Below, in pieces: positions 26,301-54,431 of a DNA stretch of 64,000 nucleotides. The stretch spans positions 26,226,001-26,290,000 of the forward strand of contig OZ004609.1 in the NCBI GenBank assembly GCA_963924565.1. Reading direction: 5' to 3'. The stretch is from Ascidiella aspersa (taxonomy: Eukaryota). Numbering within the stretch: the stretch's first letter is position 1; the number at the start of each line of letters is the position of its first letter. The notes under the pieces were generated by a model. The model saw only the letters and a list, made by a program, of their open reading frames with translations, searched no databases and was not told the origin of the DNA. The translations under genes were made by a program, and so were the position numbers.

Positions 26301-29300
26301 CCTTTCGTGCATGGCGCGCGTGTGCTTACTCTGCAGCGGCAGCGAGACGGACTTGAGGTAGTGGATCGGCTGGCGACCGCTGTAGTCGCGGATCGACGGG
26401 TCGGCGTCTGTCGAAATAGAGGAAAGTAGGGTTTTTTGTGGGGGTGTGAACATGACGTAACACGAGTGGCGTTCGGCTAAGGTTTTTAACCAACACCTTG
26501 ACGTCGACCAAAATTTTTTTCTGAACTAAAATGCCTTTCTAACGAAGCGCATTTTATACGTGGATCGTTTAATTTGATCCTTATCAATTAACTAAGTAAT
26601 CTCCTTCCATGGTTTGCCCAATGATACAATAAAAAGCGTACGTGATTTGTAAAAAAGAAACGTTAATTAGATTTCTGAACAACGGCACATGAAAATATTG
26701 GTCCGATCTAAACTTGAGAAAATTTCCTTACCGCGTTTTCTAACTTTACAATCCCTGTGTAGCATTTTGTCTCACGTGGAAAATCGTTAACAAGAGGTAA
26801 TATAATTGAACACGTCCACGTTAAAATATACCTTTATAACAGATCTTTTTGAAAGCAGTAGGTCGCTGGCTTAAAATTTGCTGGCGAGTCGCAAGTTTTA
26901 AAAACACTTAAACCACCCAAACTAGCTAAGGGTGTTGGTCGTAGTCAGATTCTTACCACTTCCACAGAGTGTTTACCAGTATAGATAGACTATCACATGG
27001 CGAAGGAAGTGTATTCCGTCGGTGACTCACCGTAATCGAGGAGGTGGGTGATGACGTGTTCTTTGCCATGCATAGCAGCTAGGTGGAGCGGCGTGTAGCC
27101 CTGGAAAATCACAAGAGTTTAGCTTACTGCTCCTACCTCCGTGGCGGCACCTGCTTCCTAGGGGAGACAGGATATCGGAGAAATGGGCTCAGACCACTAC
27201 TGACTTGGTGGAATTCCCGGTCTCTTTCTTGGCCAATGGGAAGAATCGAGCAACAACCCTTATTTACATTCTTTACTTTTACATACTTTCGCTTAGTTAA
27301 TTTAACCCAGTGGTTTTCAAACTGGGGTCTGCGAGACAATTTTCCGGGACCGCGAAGCACCTAACAAAAAATCAGCACGGCGCCGCGAAGAAGAAAATTT
27401 TTGTGCAATAAAATTTTCAGGAAACTTACTTTTCCAAACCAGGCTTAACAAACAATAAAAATAACTATGCCGTACATAGGCCTAATTGTGTGACAAAAAA
27501 GCTAAACTCAGGCTCGACCTATACGCGCAAAGTGACAATACGCTAACGTAATTCCAACGTGTTTGCGCTCGTCGTCACAAGCTACAATTAGTTATTCATT
27601 CACGTGATTGCAAAATTTGAGCGGAATTGTGCATTGTGACGTCATAGTGTTGCGTTGTGCTAATGAGAATTACGTCTTTACAGATTGCTGCGCTGCCACT
27701 GTGATCTGTACTGTCACGGTTTAAAAATTGTTCGTGATTGCTTCACTCAAGCAAAGTGATTATTTTGTGTTTATCTGTGTATATTTTTAAGGGGTCCGTG
27801 AGCAACTTTAAGTTGCTAGGGGGCCGTAGCGTAATTTTTTAAAAAAAGTTTGAGAACCACTGATTTAACCATTGGTGGACAAAACCAAATTAACTATTGG
27901 AGGACAAAACGCTTACTGTTACCATATAAAGTTATCGTATTTTGATTACTTAATTACAGGTTAATTACAAAATGAAAAATTCTACTACAGTCTTTGTTCG
28001 CCTTGAAAGCAGTCGGCGATGAGTCTGTTTTGTTTTGTTTTGCTTTAAAATCCACAAGGATCCGCTATTTTTTTGGCGTGTAAGCAAGGCAAATGTTTAA
28101 AGCGCTTAACGGTGTACTTAAAATGGAGAGACGGGTATTTTTCACACTGCTGTAAAGTGGCTTCGTGTACAAGTAACCTATTAATTATACCAAGAAAACT
28201 CAACCTACCCCGTTCTGTGTGTTGTAACATCGATCATCGGTGTGCAGAAATAACATGAAACAAAAACAATAAAGTATACGGATTAGTTACTTGTGGTCAA
28301 TAACCAGGACACTCTGTTTTCAATATTTATTGCCCCCAATTTTTTTTTTCTTCAAACTGTCCAAATAGCCACGAAAATTGAATTAAAGTCGTGCAGTGAA
28401 AAGTGCTACCCATAACTGTTAGACAAATGTTATTACAAAATAGTGGTAATTTCAGACTCAGCATGGATTTTGTCGCTCATTTTATTCAGAGCCCAGTACT
28501 CCATAATCTCATCAAAGTCTGTAAGGTAATATTTTTTTACCAAGTAGACAGTTGACACCCAACGCAAGAATCGAACCAACGACCCATAGTGCAAGGGTCA
28601 ACACCTCTAACCATTACGCCACTCTTCTCGACAATGAGCAAAGAAATAAAAACTATTACATTAATAAAAAAAGTTTACGAACCGATCTGGCGTTGACGTC
28701 GATTTTTTGGTCGAGCAGCATGTTAACCATGTCGATATTCCCCTTCTTCGCTGCCCAATGCAAAGCAGTCTAGGTAAAAAAGGTTACTTTTTACGACAGA
28801 AATATCATAATACTACACAAAAAACTTCTTATTTTACTACAAGTGTGTTTAAGGTTGGGTAGTTGAATAATAATCGATTAAAAACAATAAACTCAAAAAT
28901 AGATGAGGCACAAGGTCAAACAATTTTAGGAAATTAAAGATAATAAACCTCATTTGTTACAGAGAAACATTTTAACTGCTATAAATTAAAAATTCGAATT
29001 AAGCAACACATTTCCCAAAATACTTACATACTATAACAGTTGGAATTTTCGTCAACAGGTGTCACACAGAAGCACACAGCAGAAAACATAAAATAATAAG
29101 GATTAAAGTGAGAAAAGACAATATTAGGTTCAATGACTGAGTTTGTTTTAGAATAAATATCAAAAATTTAAATTTATTCTTCGGTAGACATATTGGGTCA
29201 TCGCTAAAGAGTAGGTAATTATTAGATGTCTTTATAACGCAGAGCTTTTTTACTACACTGTGCCATGAAAAACATTGGTATATTATATTTAGGCAACTAA

Positions 29301-32300
29301 ATAAAAACATGAGCATACATTTTGTTTGGGTTATAACTATAGAGTAAAACAAAGCCCACTGGCATAATATTTAAGAGAGCAGTTAAGCAAAATTTAAAAA
29401 AACAATTCCGAACACAGTTAGTAAAAAATCCTGTACAGGAAGTACTAAATTATATAAAGAACAACAACAACAGCATCTAATAAAACTTACGCCCTGTCGT
29501 AAATCCGATGGTATTGGATTGATGGTTGTCGAAATATCCACAAAGGCAAAAAAATAAAACACATGACAGTTTAGGAAATTGTTTGTTGAATATATCAGAG
29601 TGGTTAACGCTATTATGTGCTATTTTACAAGATAGGCTATTAATGATATTTTGTTACCCGACAAAAATACGTCAATACTTCTATAAAGCTAATAACAACA
29701 CGACAAGAAAGGAACCACTCACCATGATGAAATCCTAAAAATAAAACAAACAAAATTTAAAAAAACTTAGAACATGCACAAAACGAGGCAATACGTGAAT
29801 GTAAATAGACGTTCTAAACAGAGTTCAGTAAAGAGATCTTACCAAAGCCTTTTTAATTTGTACTTACCCATTAATTTAAAAAATCTGCAAATATTTACAA
29901 TTTATGATATTTGAATACACTAAAGCAAATCTGCTGTACAGTATCAAACCCAGCAGGCAAACAGCAGAAAAATAATCTTACTCTTGAGCCTACAGGTTAA
30001 TGTAAGCGAGTTTGCACCTATTTTATTATATACTGTCATTTTGTTTTAAATATATTTGAGTCCTATATCAAAAGTGGCATCTCCAATATAGCGATATCCC
30101 TTTCATAAATATCACCAAACGTAATAGTCGAAATACCAGATAAAGATATGAAAATATTCTCACCTTTGTTGGTGCCAGGTTCGGCTCGATGTCTAAAAGC
30201 TTCCGCATCTCAACCATGTCGCCTTGACACGACTTTATGATCCACAACTTCTCGTTCGGGTCCAACTGTCAGAAAAGCAGCAAAATTATCGGATGGCCAC
30301 AGAGGCCTGTCGCATAGGGCGTGTCAAAACACAGGCGTTAACAGTGAACTAGCATATAATGGACATGGTACATATGATTTCAGAGATCCGCTTGCTTTAT
30401 TGGGTTTTAGTATATAGACAAATAAAGTACATAAAGGGGGTTTTTAATGCTGAGAATGTTTTAAAGAGCATGCTTATTTTAGGCCTGTATTCCTTGATGA
30501 ATTAATAGAATTAGTCGCAAAGTTTACCAAAACATAAACCAAGGCGCATTGACTTCACATATAGGATATCGTTCTTTTTACGCTTCTCAAATGTTTATAC
30601 ATCTGGTCACGGTTTGTTTCTAAATTGTTATACATGGTGGATTCGGCAAGTGTGACAGATGTAAATTTTACTCGCGCTGGAGCTGTGCTATTGCAGTTGC
30701 GCGCTAAGAGTGCACACTGTTGAGAGGCCGAAACTACAATATCGAAAGGAAAACTTACACTGATAGGAGGCGCCGTTCTCTCCTGGTCGTCATCGCCTTC
30801 TCCCTGTGACGTAACAATGCTATGAACAACAACAGCTCTCACAAACAGAACTTGAATTCAAATCCATAACAAATCGAGCGCAATATATTCTAGCTTACCC
30901 TTCCGCTATCCAGCGAGAGGGCGAGGGACGCTGTGTCTTCGCTTGGTCGCTGTTTGTGTTGGAAGTTCAGACGAGCTCTCTCTACCGAACCCACGTAGCT
31001 CGTCTAAAGGGGAGAAAATGTGAATTATGAACAAGTGCGTGAATTATCGCAAGTTTTTGTCCTTTTCAAACAATAATGTTTCTATCGAAATAGAAAATTT
31101 CTTGATCAAGAAAGGGAATTAAGCAAATTGCAAAAATATTTTCATTATTATTGCAATAGACGAGCCGTGCAAGCTAAGCTGTCTGATAAGTCAGCATTAC
31201 GTTAACGTTATATAGTAGTGGTTATCAACCTTTTCTGGACGTGTACAAACGATAGCGACGTTTACTGTCTTTGTGTCGCAACTGGTTTCATAAGAGTCAT
31301 TTTGCTCATATGCTTATTTTCCAAAAGAAAAACTATAAATTGAAAACCTCGCTCCTAGCTCTAGCAGATTTATAGTGGAGATCGATTTTATGTGGTAAAA
31401 TGGATAACTTACGGCAGACGCAATAAAATTACTCGTGGTATTTGGACCTAGTTAGTGACTGCATGTCACAAGTAGTAAGTGTACCACAGTTTGAGAACCA
31501 ATGTCACACAATGTAGGTTTATATAATTAAAAAATATGGCCACCCAAAGCAAGGGTAGAAGACTCTTCTAAATCATAGAGGCAATTACTTTTAGGCGGCT
31601 TTGAACTTGAAAGCAAAAACTGTCACAAGATGCGTTTTTACCGAACACACACTGGTTCGCTTACCCTTCTCACTAAGTGCTTCGGTCTCGGTGCCTGGCC
31701 CTTGTTCAGGCTTTCCTCAACCCGTCTCAGCTGAACGCTAAAGCTGCGCATTCGAGTCAGGCGCTTCGGCGGTTGTGAAAGAGCCGCTTCCATGTTGTGA
31801 CATTACAAACCAAAACTGACAAAAAGTAACCGGGGGCTCCGCGTCTAAACAAGTCGCCAGAAGAACAAAACAGCTGACGTCGCTTACAACGGAGAGCTGC
31901 TAATTGAAGTGGACAACGTTTAATCACTGCGGCGTCAGTAAAACTAAGCTTTACTAAGTGCAATTGAAGTCACATTTTAAATGAATAATACCAGCAATAA
32001 AAACACACCTTCACCCCAGCTCTTTTTAAAAGCTAAACTGTTGCAGTGTCTTTCTAGAGCTGTGTCTAAACAACGCGGACCGTTAGATATCAGTGCTTCA
32101 ATTTTCGGGAAACATTAGGCAGGGTTGGGTTGCTAATTGGAGTAGACAACGTTTAATAACTGCGGAGTCAGTAAAACTAAGGATTCCCACAGAGCAATTG
32201 AAGTCATATTTTAAATGAATGGTAGTAATGTAAACACACCTTCACCCCAGCTCTTTTTAAAAGCTAAACTGTTGCAGTGTCTTTCTAGAGCTGTGTCTAA

Positions 32301-35300
32301 ACAACGCGGACCGTTGATATCAGTGATTCAACTTTCCGGAAACATTAAGCAGCGTATGGCGTGGCATTAGCTGTTAAATCTAAATGACGTGAGATAATTA
32401 AGGTGGCTTTGTAACTCTTTACGTACTAAAAGCGCTTCTAATAGATTTATCCTAAAATAATGTTGAATAAACGGCTGCATCTTTCACCAGAAAACATTAT
32501 AAACATACCCTGAAAATCTAAGTATAACACAAAATTCGGTATTCCGTCGTGCCACGAAAAACATAAATCCGTATCCAACAAAAACCCCTAGCTTTTTTCA
32601 CGCTCGAGTTTTACGACGCGAGCGAACCTTGCATCACAACCCGGATATGGCAACGTAAAACAGGTAGGGTATTTCCCCGGCCAGATCGGCTTATTCATTT
32701 ACAAGGCAAGTTCCGGAATAAAACCGTGACTCTTTTTTGCGATATAACAGCGGCGCCGGCGCAACGGACGAAAAATCGTGAGGCAAAACAATGGGCGAAA
32801 TACACGAAAATATTTATATAAATTCCATATAAGTAACGATCAGAGGGCTTTTATGCACTAAAACATTAATACGGATAGCTTATCGACACAACTAAGTTTG
32901 GATCGGATGACGTAAGTCTTAAGGGAACCAAAATCTAATCGAGTCAGGTTATCTAGGGCCGCTCACTGATATTTTTTACAAGGACTTTCAAAAAGTAGAA
33001 AGACACAGAACAGGGGTTTTACAACCTTTTAAAACACCTTGGCATAACAACAGAGAAATTTGTGTATTGAGAGCAGTTCGGCAATTATATTGCAACAATA
33101 TAGCCAGGGTACCTGAACTTTTTCTACTTGCGTTCCTACAAAAAGTTTTTTTTTACCAGGGTCGCGTATCCCCTTCAGTCTGACCAGGAAAGAGAAGGGG
33201 TGGGACGCAAAAAGCGGGGGCAGTCGTCAAAAGTTTTAAACCATATACCAGATATTTTGTTATATATATTCTATAATAATTTCGGTGTTAATACGCCTAT
33301 TTCTAATGCAGACATTAATATTGGGATTACATGTTGGGGCTCCCGCATGGAGACTGTTCTGACTCTTAACATGACTAAAAAGTATAAAACGGTTTCGCAA
33401 AGACTGACATGCAAATCACACTTGAAACACCGACAGTCGACACCAAAAACAGCGAAAAAACTAATACAAGCTAAAGATACGCTGTTGTTTACTTCATTCA
33501 TTTAATATATATTTCATAATGTAAAGTCAGTGCCTGATGTTATGCGCCTTCAGTTCTACAAAGCAACGTTAGAGACATGCACGAAAGTCGTGACTGATAT
33601 TTCGTTAAATATTTTACAAGTGGTGGCTATATATACAGGGCACAGGCCTATCGTAAGCCACAACAAGTATATTGTTTTGGTACTGCACCAGGTTTAATAA
33701 CGTATATCGCTATTTGGCATGGCCTTGATGAAAACCAATAGCGAACCAAAAGGAAAAACGCATAAAAAGAGTATATATCATTTCATTTTTTACACAACAA
33801 ACTATACACGTTAAGGCTAACACCAACGCACTTACTTCGAAGTAATAATGCTATAACGCTATTTATCAGAGGTAACTATGCCATTTACACTGCAGCTATA
33901 TATAAAAGGAATAATCTAAACGCAAATCGTTATAACTTTCAACGCAAAAGCAGTGTATTTGTGCCAACACAAAAACAAACAACCTTTCACAACAATTTAG
34001 GCTAAAAACAAACCTTTCACATTAATTTAGGACCAGCGACGGACCGCACGGAAAACTTTGGTCGAGTCTATGTATCACGCTAACCTACCATTATTACAAC
34101 GGGACCGAGCGGCAGCAAACCAAATACGCAAAAAGGCTCGATTGTGGAATTGATTGAGCTCGATATCGCTTGACAAGTACGGCAAAGCGACGTGCCGCAG
34201 TGGCGCATATCCGCTCGTAATACGACAAACGCAGACTGATGAATAAAGCGCAAACGACCGACGACAACTTTCGACAACAACTCACAGTTGGTATGTGGCT
34301 GGGCAGTTTGTGCGACCGGCGCAAAAAACAATTAGCGTTCGATTTATTCCACAACTAGCAGAGCTTACGAAAACGATTTGTATAATCGAAACGCGCGTTC
34401 TCACTTATTTACATTTACCAGAAGCTAACCTGCAAAAAAATCGAAATAGAACTTGACTTTCTTCCTGTGTATTGCATGAGGCTGACAACTTTAAAAAAAG
34501 GCGCAAAACAATTCCGGACTTGCCACATTGCGTTCCTTAAAAAGGTGCGTTTTCCACGGCCGCGTGAGCAGCCAGCCTTAAATGCTCTTCGTGTCTTGGC
34601 CTTCCAATTATAAACCCGACAAGCAACAAGTCGTCCTCAAGGGCTTTCGAGCGCACAGCTAAATCCACAGGGCCACTGAAGCCACAACAGCGTCGTTTTG
34701 CACGGCATAGTTTAGCGCGACAGGGCAGAAAAAAGGCGGCAAAGACCGTTTTCACCTGTTTGTCGACCACGCGATTTTTTATCGATCGCGATCACCGGGT
34801 GACCGCCGGGGCCGAAAGCAAAGATTGCGCCCCTTTCAATAACGAAAGGGAATTCGGCAATTTCTTATTATGGCGCTTTCACAATTATTCGCAGGTCATG
34901 GATGGTTGGCGCACAGTGCGTATTGTTTGGAAAAGTCGGAACTCGGGAGTCGGGACGCATTCCAGTGGGCTCTCGCGCGGCATTTTTTTGCTAATCTGAG
35001 ATTGCGATAGGCTGAAATCTCTCGATTTTGTTTTGAGCTCTGCTCTCCTGTTTTAACTAAAAGAATCGCTTCGCCGAGGTTGGAGATTAGCGGGTGGTGA
35101 AACGCTAACGCAGCATCAACAACGTCAGACCTTAAGCTTGGTTTTAGCAACATTGAAGGATTATATAGTTTGAATTAAGTAGTTGTAACGTAACGGTCAT
35201 TTGAATCAAAACGTCTGTATGCGCTTGTATTTACGGCTTTTGTATGAAACTAACGCATTTGACAGGCTCTAATGCGTTGAACGTTTTGATTTCACCTAAA

Positions 35301-51447: not shown

Positions 51448-54431
51448 GGGTCATTCCATCCTTAATTTAAAGGCCCGGAACCCATGTTCTTAGATTTTCT
51501 TTAAACTTAGTACAATTGAAGATCTCTTTTAAAAAATAAGAATGCAAAAAATTTGAGCGTTCTGTGATAAGCGGTTTCGAAGATATGGCAGTTTAAAATA
51601 TTTTACCACTAGGTGGAAATGGGTACTTTTTGGTTCCGCTTGAGCGCTTTTTGCTCTGTTGTGGCTTAATTTTGCAGTAGAAGCCTGAAGTAAAATTCTA
51701 TTCCACCATTTATGGGGTTGCTAATTTCAAAAATGATGATTAAAACTATATGTGATGAATTCTTCTACATGTAATTTACATTTAAAGTTTTCTGACTTCC
51801 GAAGACTTTTCCGAAGCTCTCTGCAATTTTTTTTCAATTTTTATGCTGGAAAAATAATCTTGAGACATCATAGTATTTGGAATTTTTAAAGTGATTCTTG
51901 GTTATTTGCAATTAGTAATTGGTTTTGGTTTTAATGTTTTAAATTTGTGTTAAATTTAAAACACTAAAAAGTTACAACTGATAACTAGAGGCAGTAAAAG
52001 TCATACTTTTTTGGTGTAAAATCAAAAAATATTGTTATGAGCTTCATGTAAGAAGGTTTAAGGTCATATTCTCTGTTTGTAGTCATAAAATATGACCTTT
52101 TGATTTTACTTAAACTTTAAAGATTTGGTCCTAGTAATTTTGTAGACAAAGTTAAAGCAGTCCCCTCTAGAAGTATTGCAATGAGAGTTCTCATGCTGAA
52201 TTTCATGAAGCATTTAAAGCATGATTTTCATTGTTTTCTGTACTTTAATGCTTACTGTTTGATTTCAATTTACATTGTGACATTATCTTGACACATTGTT
52301 TTGCAACACACAGTGTTGAATATTATAAACACATGCCATAGGTCAGCTCGTACAGTCAGTTAGATCAGAGTTATAACTTCTATGGTCAGCCAATGTTAAG
52401 ATCTTAAGAGCTCCGGGTAGTTTTTAGCCTACAGCTCAATAGTGTATTTAATTTCTCAGTGCCTTTTTCAGGATTTAGTAAATTTGTGTAATCTTTACGT
52501 GTACATTTAGCCTTGCTAGTATCTGTTTTTGAGCTTTATAACTACACAGATTTGTAAAAAATGGAACCGTGTACTATAGGCATTTTAAAAGGGGTAGTAA
52601 AAGAGTGTCACAGCAACTCAAGAATTAGTAAACAAGGCATGACTAATTTCAATACAATAAGCGATGAGGAAAGAATTATTTATTTATGGCGAGCTGGACT
52701 TTGCACAGAAATTCGTGGAAGAGATAGCAAAATTTGCAACCACCGCAAAAAGCAGTTAGGGGACTACTTTTTATCTAGAAAGATGAAGTGCACTGATGTG
52801 TATGGAAGACATAAGAAAAAAAAGCCTTCAGGTAGCCGAATCATCAGTTTGGATACGGCACTCTACCTGAAATCACAGGAAATTAACAGCATACCAGGAG
52901 ACAAATTGTGTCGAAATTGCTGGGGCTTGTTGTTCAAAAATATGCAGGTTGAAAAAGATCCTTCTGGTAAGTCAGATTCAAGTACAACAGAAAGTTTAGA
53001 TAACTCTTTTAACCAATCTAATTCATTAAAAAGGTCAAATGAAGTACTAAAGCTATTGGGAAAATCACCTGTTAAACTACATTCCCTCAAAAAACGCCAA
53101 CGCCTATCTTATGTTCAAAACACGGTATCTAATGTAGTCCGGAACATCCAAGAAAATTTATCACTTGCAATACCAACAGAAGATGAAGAACAAGCATCAA
53201 CTTCACAGTCAAAAAAACAACAAGAGGAAAATGCAATTAAAGCAAATGATTTGGATATTTTAATGAACGAGCTTAACGAAAAAATAGTAACTGCTAATCG
53301 TGACGAAAAACTTTCCATTTTGACATTAAAGCCGCACTCCTGGTATTTTGAAAAAACTCGTAAATTTTTTGGAGTGTCTAATTATTATGTTTCGTATCGG
53401 CTAATTTAAGACTGGAGAAAGGAATTTTGGCACCCCATTGGAGCTAAATATAAACTAACAGATGAAACAAAACAGCTGATTAAAGATTTTTATTTGGATG
53501 ATAACCATTCATTTTTTAGAATCCTGCCTGGCCGAAAGGATTTTGTTAGCATAAGACCGAACATACATGAGCAAAAATGCCTTTTGCTGTGTAATATTGA
53601 TGAACTATATGTATTGTTTAGACAAAAACATCCCTCTTTCAAAGTACGTTCATCCATGTTTTATAAACCTCAACCAAAACAATGTATTACTGTATCAGCA
53701 TCAGGACAAAATCTCTTCTAAATTTCATACTTTGTCTTCTGAATAAAATTGTAACTATTAATTTTTTCTAGAATCCTGTAAAGAATGTTAAATGTAAATA
53801 TATTTTCCAATGTATATTGTATGTCAGTACAATAGTTGTACACGAAGTTGTGACAGTGTAGCGCATCAATTGATTTAAAGTGTCACCATTTTTTATTGTT
53901 GTATTTTAATTTGTTCCACAATTTGCATGAATTTGAAACTTGATAACCAACTACTAATTGCAAATAACCAAGAATCACTTTAAAAATTCCAAATACTATG
54001 ATGTCTCAAGATTATTTTTCCAGCATAAAAATTGAAAAAAAATTGCAGAGAGCTTCGGAAAAGTCTTCGGAAGTCAGAAAACTTTAAATGTAAATTACAT
54101 GTAGAAGAATTTACCACATATTGTTTTTATTATCATTTTTGAAATTAGCAACCCCATAAATGGTGGAATAGCATTTTACTGCGGGCTTCTACTGCAAAAT
54201 TAAGCCACAACAGAGCTAAAAGCGCTCAAGCGGAACCAAAAAATACCCATTTCCACCTAGTGGTAAAATATTTCAAAATGTCATATCTTTGAAACCGCTT
54301 ATCACAGAACGCTCAAATTTTTTGCATTCTTATTTTTTTATTAAAATCTTCAGTTAACTTAAATTTAAAGAAAATCTGAAAACATGGGTGGACAAATTTC
54401 TGAAAACTTTAAATTAAGGATGGAATGACCC
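51448..54431 (+). mobile_element. Sola2-like DNA transposon, internally deleted
   Basis: ~470-bp highly similar TIRs starting GGGTCATTCCATCC, 4-bp TSD TTGT, transposase N-terminal remnant inside. GRG termini, long TIRs and a 4-bp TSD are Sola2 hallmarks. Confidence 0.8.
52561..53721 (+). pseudogene. Truncated, frameshifted Sola2-like transposase
   Basis: Intronless 282-aa ORF with a Cys/His N-terminus (IC.H..C.D..RHKK..IPGDKLCRNC) and LTLKPHSW..FGVSNY. It continues in another frame as FYLDD..RILPGRKDFVSI..QKCLLLCNIDELY..HP..KV..F. No catalytic core before the right TIR. Confidence 0.75.

Follow-up and report, generated by a model that had tools for sequence, protein, structure and literature searches.

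Four microexons, two of them a single codon long, encode ankyrin loops in the Sowah gene of the ascidian Ascidiella aspersa

Introduction

Can a conserved protein loop be assembled from exons of a single codon, and are such exons always spliced in or switched one by one? The question is raised by a 64,000-nucleotide stretch of the genome of the ascidian Ascidiella aspersa (assembly GCA_963924565.1, contig OZ004609.1, positions 26,226,001 to 26,290,000 of the forward strand), hereafter the window, which is numbered from its first letter. A preliminary description of the window had read microexons of 12, 3 and 3 nt at 29028..29734, in the order that rebuilds the motif DFxxG(Y/F) of the Sowah ankyrin protein family, and had proposed that any subset of them can be skipped in frame, editing the loop. 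We found that 12-, 3-, 3- and 6-nt microexons are real exons of an intron-bearing Sowah gene, and that the four spell two short ankyrin loops of the Sowah protein, DFxxG(Y/F) and xNGGY. With a probability that we put at roughly 0.7, all four are normally included and spliced with the downstream intron first, the skip forms being minor. The ascidian layout is already known from fly annotation, and what is new is that a further lineage now has a correct gene model.

Literature searches of main texts, with subscription journals mostly outside their coverage, turned up neither a paper that names Sowah microexons nor any work on the Sowah exons of ascidians. The gene structure of Sowah was reportedly described by Maeso et al. 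in 2012, and that work, together with its supplements, may already describe the microexons.

Four Microexons in the Ascidian Sowah Gene

All four microexons are on the minus strand, and by sequence reading all of their borders are in phase 0. The three exons of the preliminary description are present at the span, in the order and in the phase that it gave; its inventory was incomplete, a fourth microexon of 6 nt having been missed. The exon LDPNEKLW...LAPTK (30265-30164; donor gtgaga; detected by tblastn), which encodes helices ahead of the first canonical ankyrin repeat, is followed by the 12-nt microexon DFIM (29734-29723, tag/GATTTCATCATG/gtgagt), the 3-nt microexon Gly (29493-29491, cag/GGC/gtaagt) and the 3-nt microexon Tyr (29030-29028, tag/TAT/gtaagt), after which the exon TALHWAAK...VNARS (28769-28683; Pfam Ank, E 3.8e-9) encodes an ankyrin repeat with 29 of 29 residues identical to Phallusia. 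The introns between the LAPTK and TALHW exons measure, in order, 429, 229, 460 and 258 nt. The 6-nt microexon Asn-Gly (28214-28209, cag/AACGGG/gtaggt) is the sole candidate in the intron after the TALHW exon that gives the two residues present in the second loop of homologs, and it precedes the ankyrin-repeat exon GYTPLHLAA... (27100-27031; Pfam Ank, E 7.1e-6). The 12-nt exon corresponds to DFVM, DFIS or DFVL in homologs, and read-through homolog models end at both of its borders.

By sequence comparison, the gene is the ascidian ortholog of Sowah, nearest to that of Phallusia. Ankyrin repeats with the family motifs DFxxG(Y/F)-TALHW and xGGYTPLH are present, the LAPTK exon occurs once in the 308.6-Mb genome and matches Ciona SOWAHC when used as a query, and a search with Ciona SOWAHC ranked ascidian Sowah proteins first, the best matches carrying SOWAH names. 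The Phallusia protein aligns exon by exon with the window from 46188 to 25860 and has DFVM-G-Y and N-G at the microexon positions. In the AlphaFold model of that protein, the microexon residues (405-410 and 440-441) are high-confidence loops between ankyrin helices, and DSSP called no strands among them, so that the term "beta-hairpin" of the preliminary description stands by ankyrin convention. The same domain order is found in the Sowah proteins of Phallusia mammillata (SOWAHB-like, P0008), Ciona (XP_026690322.1 and XP_018667679.2) and Clavelina (XP_076809700.1), and ascidian models break at the same borders as the window microexons: the Ciona models hold Gly or Tyr and never both, the Clavelina model holds neither, and Phallusia is the sole complete record among these.

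A Drosophila-type cassette, with exons of 12, 3 and 3 nt ahead of TALHW and one of 6 nt ahead of GYTPLH, is thus found in the ascidian. According to Table S4 of Pang et al. (2021, PMC8042270), D. melanogaster sowah (FBgn0036302) has FlyBase-tagged exons of 12 nt (ME119), GGC (ME3), TAT (ME2) and AACGGG (ME19) in the same order; the last three are letter-identical to the ascidian exons, whereas the 12-nt exon differs in sequence. By the coordinates in that source, the introns around the fly microexons are 1-3 kb, compared with 229-1108 nt in the ascidian. The statement in the preliminary description that tiny Sowah exons occur in other bilaterians is borne out by this table. Tables S4 and S5 of the same study place all four fly exons on a sheet of 128 constitutively spliced microexons, the calls being drawn from head, body, gonad and developmental samples. 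Because the same four exons are annotated and always included in the fly, the ascidian arrangement is likely an old fixed layout and not a residue-by-residue switch. Tetrapod SOWAHA-D retrogenes (Maeso et al. 2012, as cited in PMC5803294) belong to the same protein family and the copies seen keep the full loop, but they are intronless and so have no microexons.

Of 5000 dinucleotide shuffles made from the 1394-nt interval, 0 had a Gly site with a Tyr/Phe site after it, the codons having been picked from the homolog motif, and 2 had at least two 3-nt sites of any codon. Seven 3-nt sites of the AG-NNN-GT type occur on both strands of the 64-kb window, including the Gly and Tyr microexons. Other AG..GT candidates of 1-30 nt (8, 17 and 21 nt in the first intron; 10 in or beside the repeat at 27130-27860) were rejected because they misfit the homolog motif. 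This repeat, within the Asn-Gly to GYTPLH intron, is of high copy number, with a DNA contig depth several hundred times that of its flanks.

Probable Transcript Contigs Ending at Microexon Donors

Sequencing runs mapped to the region comprised contigs of three runs (X1, X2 and X3) and raw RNA reads of a fourth (X4, of which about 6% was read). X1 and X2 are DNA-like and traverse the region without a skip. In X3, outside the repeat, depth peaks on exons and contigs leave the genome at donors; this exon-confined depth and these breaks indicate that X3 is probably RNA, though it is not recorded as such. In the DNA runs, adjacent contigs share 30 letters; the length of an overhang is accordingly taken to equal the number of letters shared with the competing path.

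X3 record 21 ends at 29028, the Tyr donor, with 27 letters over. This is the length predicted for a transcript with Gly and Tyr, whereas the five first-loop skip forms tested predict 26 (Gly skipped), 25 (Tyr alone) or 30 (Tyr skipped). Similarly, X3 record 20 ends at 28208, the Asn-Gly donor, with 22 letters over (predicted 22 for inclusion and 28 for skipping). At an ordinary joint used as a control, record 24 stops at 31665 with an overhang of 29 letters, which is the predicted value. In this way, the contig ends fit mRNA that includes Gly and Tyr as well as Asn-Gly, and do not fit the skip forms tested.

Both microexon contigs continue into the upstream intron (29028-29624, depth 7.36; 28208-28522, depth 5.13; the depth of the last exon is 16.7), and in binned X3 depth none is left for the unique parts of the introns downstream of the Tyr and Asn-Gly exons. 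A transcript that keeps the upstream intron and has lost the downstream one would be expected as an intermediate if the downstream intron leaves first.

Loops Across Animal Sowah Proteins

To compare the loops across animals, 268 proteins were gathered, from which 69 non-Sowah ankyrin proteins were removed by name, Pfam list and motif. The remaining 199 consist of 53 records from de novo-assembled short contigs and 146 that are annotation-derived or unplaced. Gly plus an aromatic residue precedes the helix in all 46 de novo-assembled homologs that contain the first-loop region (the other 7 of the 53 are fragments), and one such homolog is a residue short within the 4-residue part. Among the annotation-derived records, 13 of 146 lack the region; the remaining 133 include 69 complete loops, 53 without exactly a microexon subset, and 11 that are odd or substituted. 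The 53 losses affect Tyr/Phe in 21 models, Gly in 12, both in 9, all three exons in 9, and the 12-nt exon plus one 3-nt exon in 2. In the second loop, one or two residues are absent in 17 of 130 annotation records and Asn-Gly is absent in 1 of 44 assembled ones. Since the assembled records are complete in 46 of 46 cases and 53 of 133 annotated models lose residues at the borders, most of the "skip isoforms" are likely mapping failures. That annotation pipelines miss these exons is in keeping with the preliminary description, which had noted that most aligners miss exons of 3 nt. Serine occupies the first-loop Gly position in aphid Sowah models (P0194-P0196, P0446-P0458).

Among poeciliid fishes, Gly-Phe is found in 0 of the 15 RefSeq models listed, with an intron-derived Val-Ile in its place in 4, and assembled sequences of the same group do hold Gly-Phe, which points to mapping failure. 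In Hydra, the RefSeq gene is split at DFIM and before GYTPLH, and assembled Hydra records are complete; the Clavelina gene model is also split at microexon borders. Because of the 53 deficient models and the split Hydra and Clavelina genes, Sowah would serve as a good benchmark for aligners and as a warning about database "isoforms".

Some models of the sponge Ephydatia are without Gly-Tyr and Asn-Gly, and others read DFIF-G before continuing into an intron. The metagenome contig L034, for which Ephydatia gives the best Sowah match (145 vs 121 bits, a modest margin), has the first loop fused and carries in its second-loop intron two candidate single-codon exons, tag/AAT/gtaag (2569-2571) and cag/GGG/gtgag (2735-2737), a combination found in 0 of 3000 shuffles; as in the window, their AG-free zones are long (90 and 126 nt). 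The loop is fused with all six residues kept, and introns elsewhere, in the genomic contigs L028, L034, L071, L074, L085 and L088. No tunicate genomic ortholog was seen among the 27 of 80 metagenome loci examined. From the Hydra and Ephydatia breaks, L034 and the complete fused contigs, the borders appear to be old and to have been repeatedly lost, the residues being kept at the loss. These comparisons suggest that the borders predate bilaterians, and single-codon Sowah exons are probably as old as animals, having arisen before the sponge split. If the sponge evidence holds, constitutive single-codon exons would be older than the neural microexon programme.

Acceptor Anatomy and Proposed Order of Splicing

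Among the 15 acceptors, the AG-free zones are longest in front of the three smallest exons (114 nt for Gly, 104 nt for Tyr and 73 nt for Asn-Gly, against 14-67 nt elsewhere). Their U-rich tracts are displaced upstream, at 29561-29547 for Gly (starting at -68), 29095-29081 for Tyr (-65) and 28272-28258 for Asn-Gly (-58), all on the minus strand, while in 10 of the 12 other acceptors the tract lies at -18 to -24; these displaced tracts presumably function in acceptor recognition. The region next to the AG is pyrimidine-poor (47-53%) in the three exons, CTRAT-type branch candidates are found at -105, -97 and -72 for Gly, Tyr and Asn-Gly, and the donors are strong (GTAAGT, GTAAGT and GTAGGT, respectively). 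The 12-nt exon has an ordinary acceptor with a U-tract adjoining the AG. RNA folding of six acceptor regions gave no structure beyond that of shuffles (z from -1.1 to +1.8).

These features are consistent with stepwise, intron-defined splicing. As the tiny exons would not be long enough for exon definition, the strong donor of each may first be joined to the next large exon across the short intron. This would yield a composite exon of normal size with a weak acceptor, which could then be used by means of a U-tract and a branch point placed 55-110 nt upstream, beyond an AG-free spacer; with the branch region displaced, both U2 and U1 could fit around an exon of three bases. Joining would begin at the 3' end of the chain, with Tyr, then Gly, then DFIM, and the product would be the complete DFxxG(Y/F) and xNGGY loops. 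Long distances between branch point and AG are also reported for vertebrate neural microexons in PMC12871342. For plants, Yu et al. (2022, PMC8831610) report that detention affects the introns upstream of microexons more often than those downstream. The constitutive plant microexons of that report resemble those of Sowah in being very short coding exons within a conserved domain, missed by annotation, with the downstream intron tending to leave first; they differ in belonging to unrelated genes and in being documented by fractionated RNA, whereas the order in ascidian Sowah is read from two contig ends.

Evidence Against and Alternative Explanations

Several observations weigh against constitutive inclusion of all four exons by downstream-first splicing. 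The overhang at the Tyr donor is predicted to be 27 letters whether the 12-nt exon is in or out; the junctions were deduced from overhang lengths and not from the overhanging letters; contigs do not represent single molecules and lose rare forms, and thus show presence and not absence; and the raw X4 reads are almost nil on exons in the part of the run read. The ordinary intron 31004-31664 also has X3 contigs (depths 3.2 and 2.7), so retention is not unique to the microexons. Two ordinary acceptors, at 30803 and 28769, have a distant best U-tract as well, and the AG-free zone of the last exon reaches 67 nt. Among the homologs, the de novo class contains genes that do not test splicing, namely intronless copies from vertebrates and lineages with fused exons, and therefore overstates the number of real splicing tests, the assembled record without Asn-Gly is P0150, and RefSeq isoforms without Gly, Tyr/Phe or both exist in Ciona, bees, wasps, a caecilian and fishes, some of which could be real. 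Low-level skipping of the microexons is possible.

One alternative agrees that the exons are constitutive and holds that slow upstream introns keep a regulated, unproductive pool of transcripts that sets Sowah output, which would explain why the layout has been kept. The partly spliced contigs, at less than half the depth of the last exon, are in line with it, as are the detention of upstream introns before plant microexons (PMC8831610) and the identity of the Gly, Tyr and Asn-Gly letters between the ascidian and the fly exons of PMC8042270, third codon positions included. However, the contig depths are flat and come from a single run with no tissue contrast, the ordinary intron shows contigs too, and shared third positions can stem from constraints on splice sites. 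The layout appears dispensable, since the exons are fused in several lineages. We regard this explanation as doubtful, and a regulatory purpose for slow downstream-first splicing is speculative. A wider form of the idea, in which the single-codon exons predate the sponge split, neurons and the eMIC programme and were kept as a slow, downstream-first detained-intron control point on Sowah output, is offered very tentatively; were it true, the Sowah exons would be the founding members of an ancient class of constitutive 3-nt exons that does not depend on eMIC.

It is unlikely that subsets of the exons are skipped by tissue under an eMIC-type factor of the SRRM2/3/4 family, tuning the ankyrin loop residue by residue, a possibility raised by the preliminary description. 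With every border in phase 0, in-frame skipping is possible in principle, RefSeq isoform sets cover nearly all subsets, and P0150 is a de novo-assembled case without Asn-Gly. There is also a resemblance to the eMIC code, as given in PMC8797185, in the long AG-free zones, the weak tracts next to the AG and the UGC motifs. Of these traits, the long AG exclusion zone and the weak acceptor are indeed present here, but the UGC motifs lie 32-55 nt upstream of the AG and UGC occurs at ordinary acceptors as well; furthermore, the donors are strong, unlike the weak donors reported for fly eMIC exons, and Table S2 of that study has one sowah row, for a different exon of 46 nt. Further evidence against the proposed editing comes from the constitutive calls for the fly orthologs in head, body and gonad data (PMC8042270), from the contig ends that fit Gly plus Tyr, from the uniform presence of Gly plus an aromatic residue in assembled homologs, and from the poeciliid models, whose losses look like mapping failure.

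Dependence on SRRM3/4-type factors becomes less likely because the borders are seen in Hydra and sponge records and the eMIC domain is reported as bilaterian (PMC8797185). In the genome, the eMIC domain PF15230 gave no match at E<=1, and no eMIC-like motif was seen in the 20 kb behind the RS-rich cwf21 gene, where a split exon could be missed. As portrayed in PMC8797185 and PMC12871342, the neural microexons that depend on eMIC and SRRM3/4 are like those of Sowah in having lengths that are multiples of three, long AG-free zones and an extended distance from branch point to AG; they are tissue-switched, mostly lineage-specific and bilaterian, whereas the Sowah exons appear constitutive, have strong donors and appear older. 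Some contribution of SRRM proteins to the splicing of Sowah microexons is possible.

Finally, the microexons could be chance AG-NNN-GT matches, with the true mRNA joining the flanking exons directly or via other sequence. The five other 3-nt sites in the window show that such matches do arise by chance, yet this explanation is highly improbable here given the absence of the ordered pair from all shuffles, the letters shared with the fly exons tabulated in PMC8042270, the contigs that end on donors, and a Phallusia protein with DFVM-G-Y and NG.

What remains of interest is that the exons seem to predate bilaterians and that the compact ascidian gene offers a test system, a convenient minigene in which the splicing of consecutive 3-nt exons could be studied without tissue-specific regulators.

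Gene Model and Genomic Neighbourhood

The Sowah gene spans 20 kb, its introns being given as 229-1108 nt. Its 5' coding exons (46188-40617, minus strand), detected by tblastn with Phallusia, Ciona and Clavelina proteins at up to 95% identity, encode an N-terminal winged-helix-type domain and a low-complexity linker; with inner borders as read from the letters, their putative limits are 46188-46068, 44944-44883, 43442-about 43283, 42245-41844, 41521-41388 and 40715-40617. The first exons are 70-95% identical to homologs for which PF25877 is precomputed, the Pfam scan of the window itself did not report PF25877, and the AlphaFold model of the Phallusia protein has a folded helix-strand domain at residues 7-68. 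Two ordinary exons follow (31003-30899 and 30803-30759, minus strand), supported by tblastn, splice sites and X3 depth. The last coding exon, with the stop codon (26407-25851, minus strand), matches Phallusia at E 6e-39 in tblastn and is covered by X3 record 19. The tunicate-like Sowah proteins P0009, P0010 and P0193 have two different C-terminal tails past the last ankyrin repeat, suggesting alternative last exons.

An alternative first coding exon with an ATG at 31793 (31793-31665, minus strand) is spliced to 31003, X3 record 24 ending at its donor. The transcribed region extends past 32000, and in Ciona the isoform P0003 differs in its N-terminus at the matching joint. Use of this internal first exon (31665-32000 and beyond) would yield a Sowah form without the winged-helix domain. 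Upstream of it, an imperfect direct duplication of about 240 nt is visible by eye at 31940-32330.

About 124 and 160 kb from Sowah on the same contig are two homeoboxes (G000:C3:26127471 and 26091483; L008 and L010) that we take to be of Irx type from the translated homeodomain and its motif. Genes for an ABC transporter, a TPR protein and a fibrinogen-domain protein lie between (60 of 292 open frames scanned). Linkage to Iroquois genes is thus found, and an immediately neighbouring Sowah with large enhancer-bearing introns is not; the Irx-Sowah linkage is loosened here. In Drosophila, sowah is near the Iroquois genes, and according to PMC12311624 its large introns contain Iro-C enhancers. The contig of the window also carries a second Irx pair (C3:16752089 and 16792997; L006 and L011).

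The ABC transporter is an uninterrupted frame of 1402 codons (L106:2543-6748, about G000:C3 26178543-26182748) amid an intron-rich genome, possibly a retrocopy or a transfer. Within the window, a fibrinogen-domain frame on the minus strand at 2394-2753 is presumably intelectin-like, judging from a motif. Two long adjacent frames at 52558-53721 (283 and 103 aa), which have no Pfam match, give the impression of a decayed transposon.

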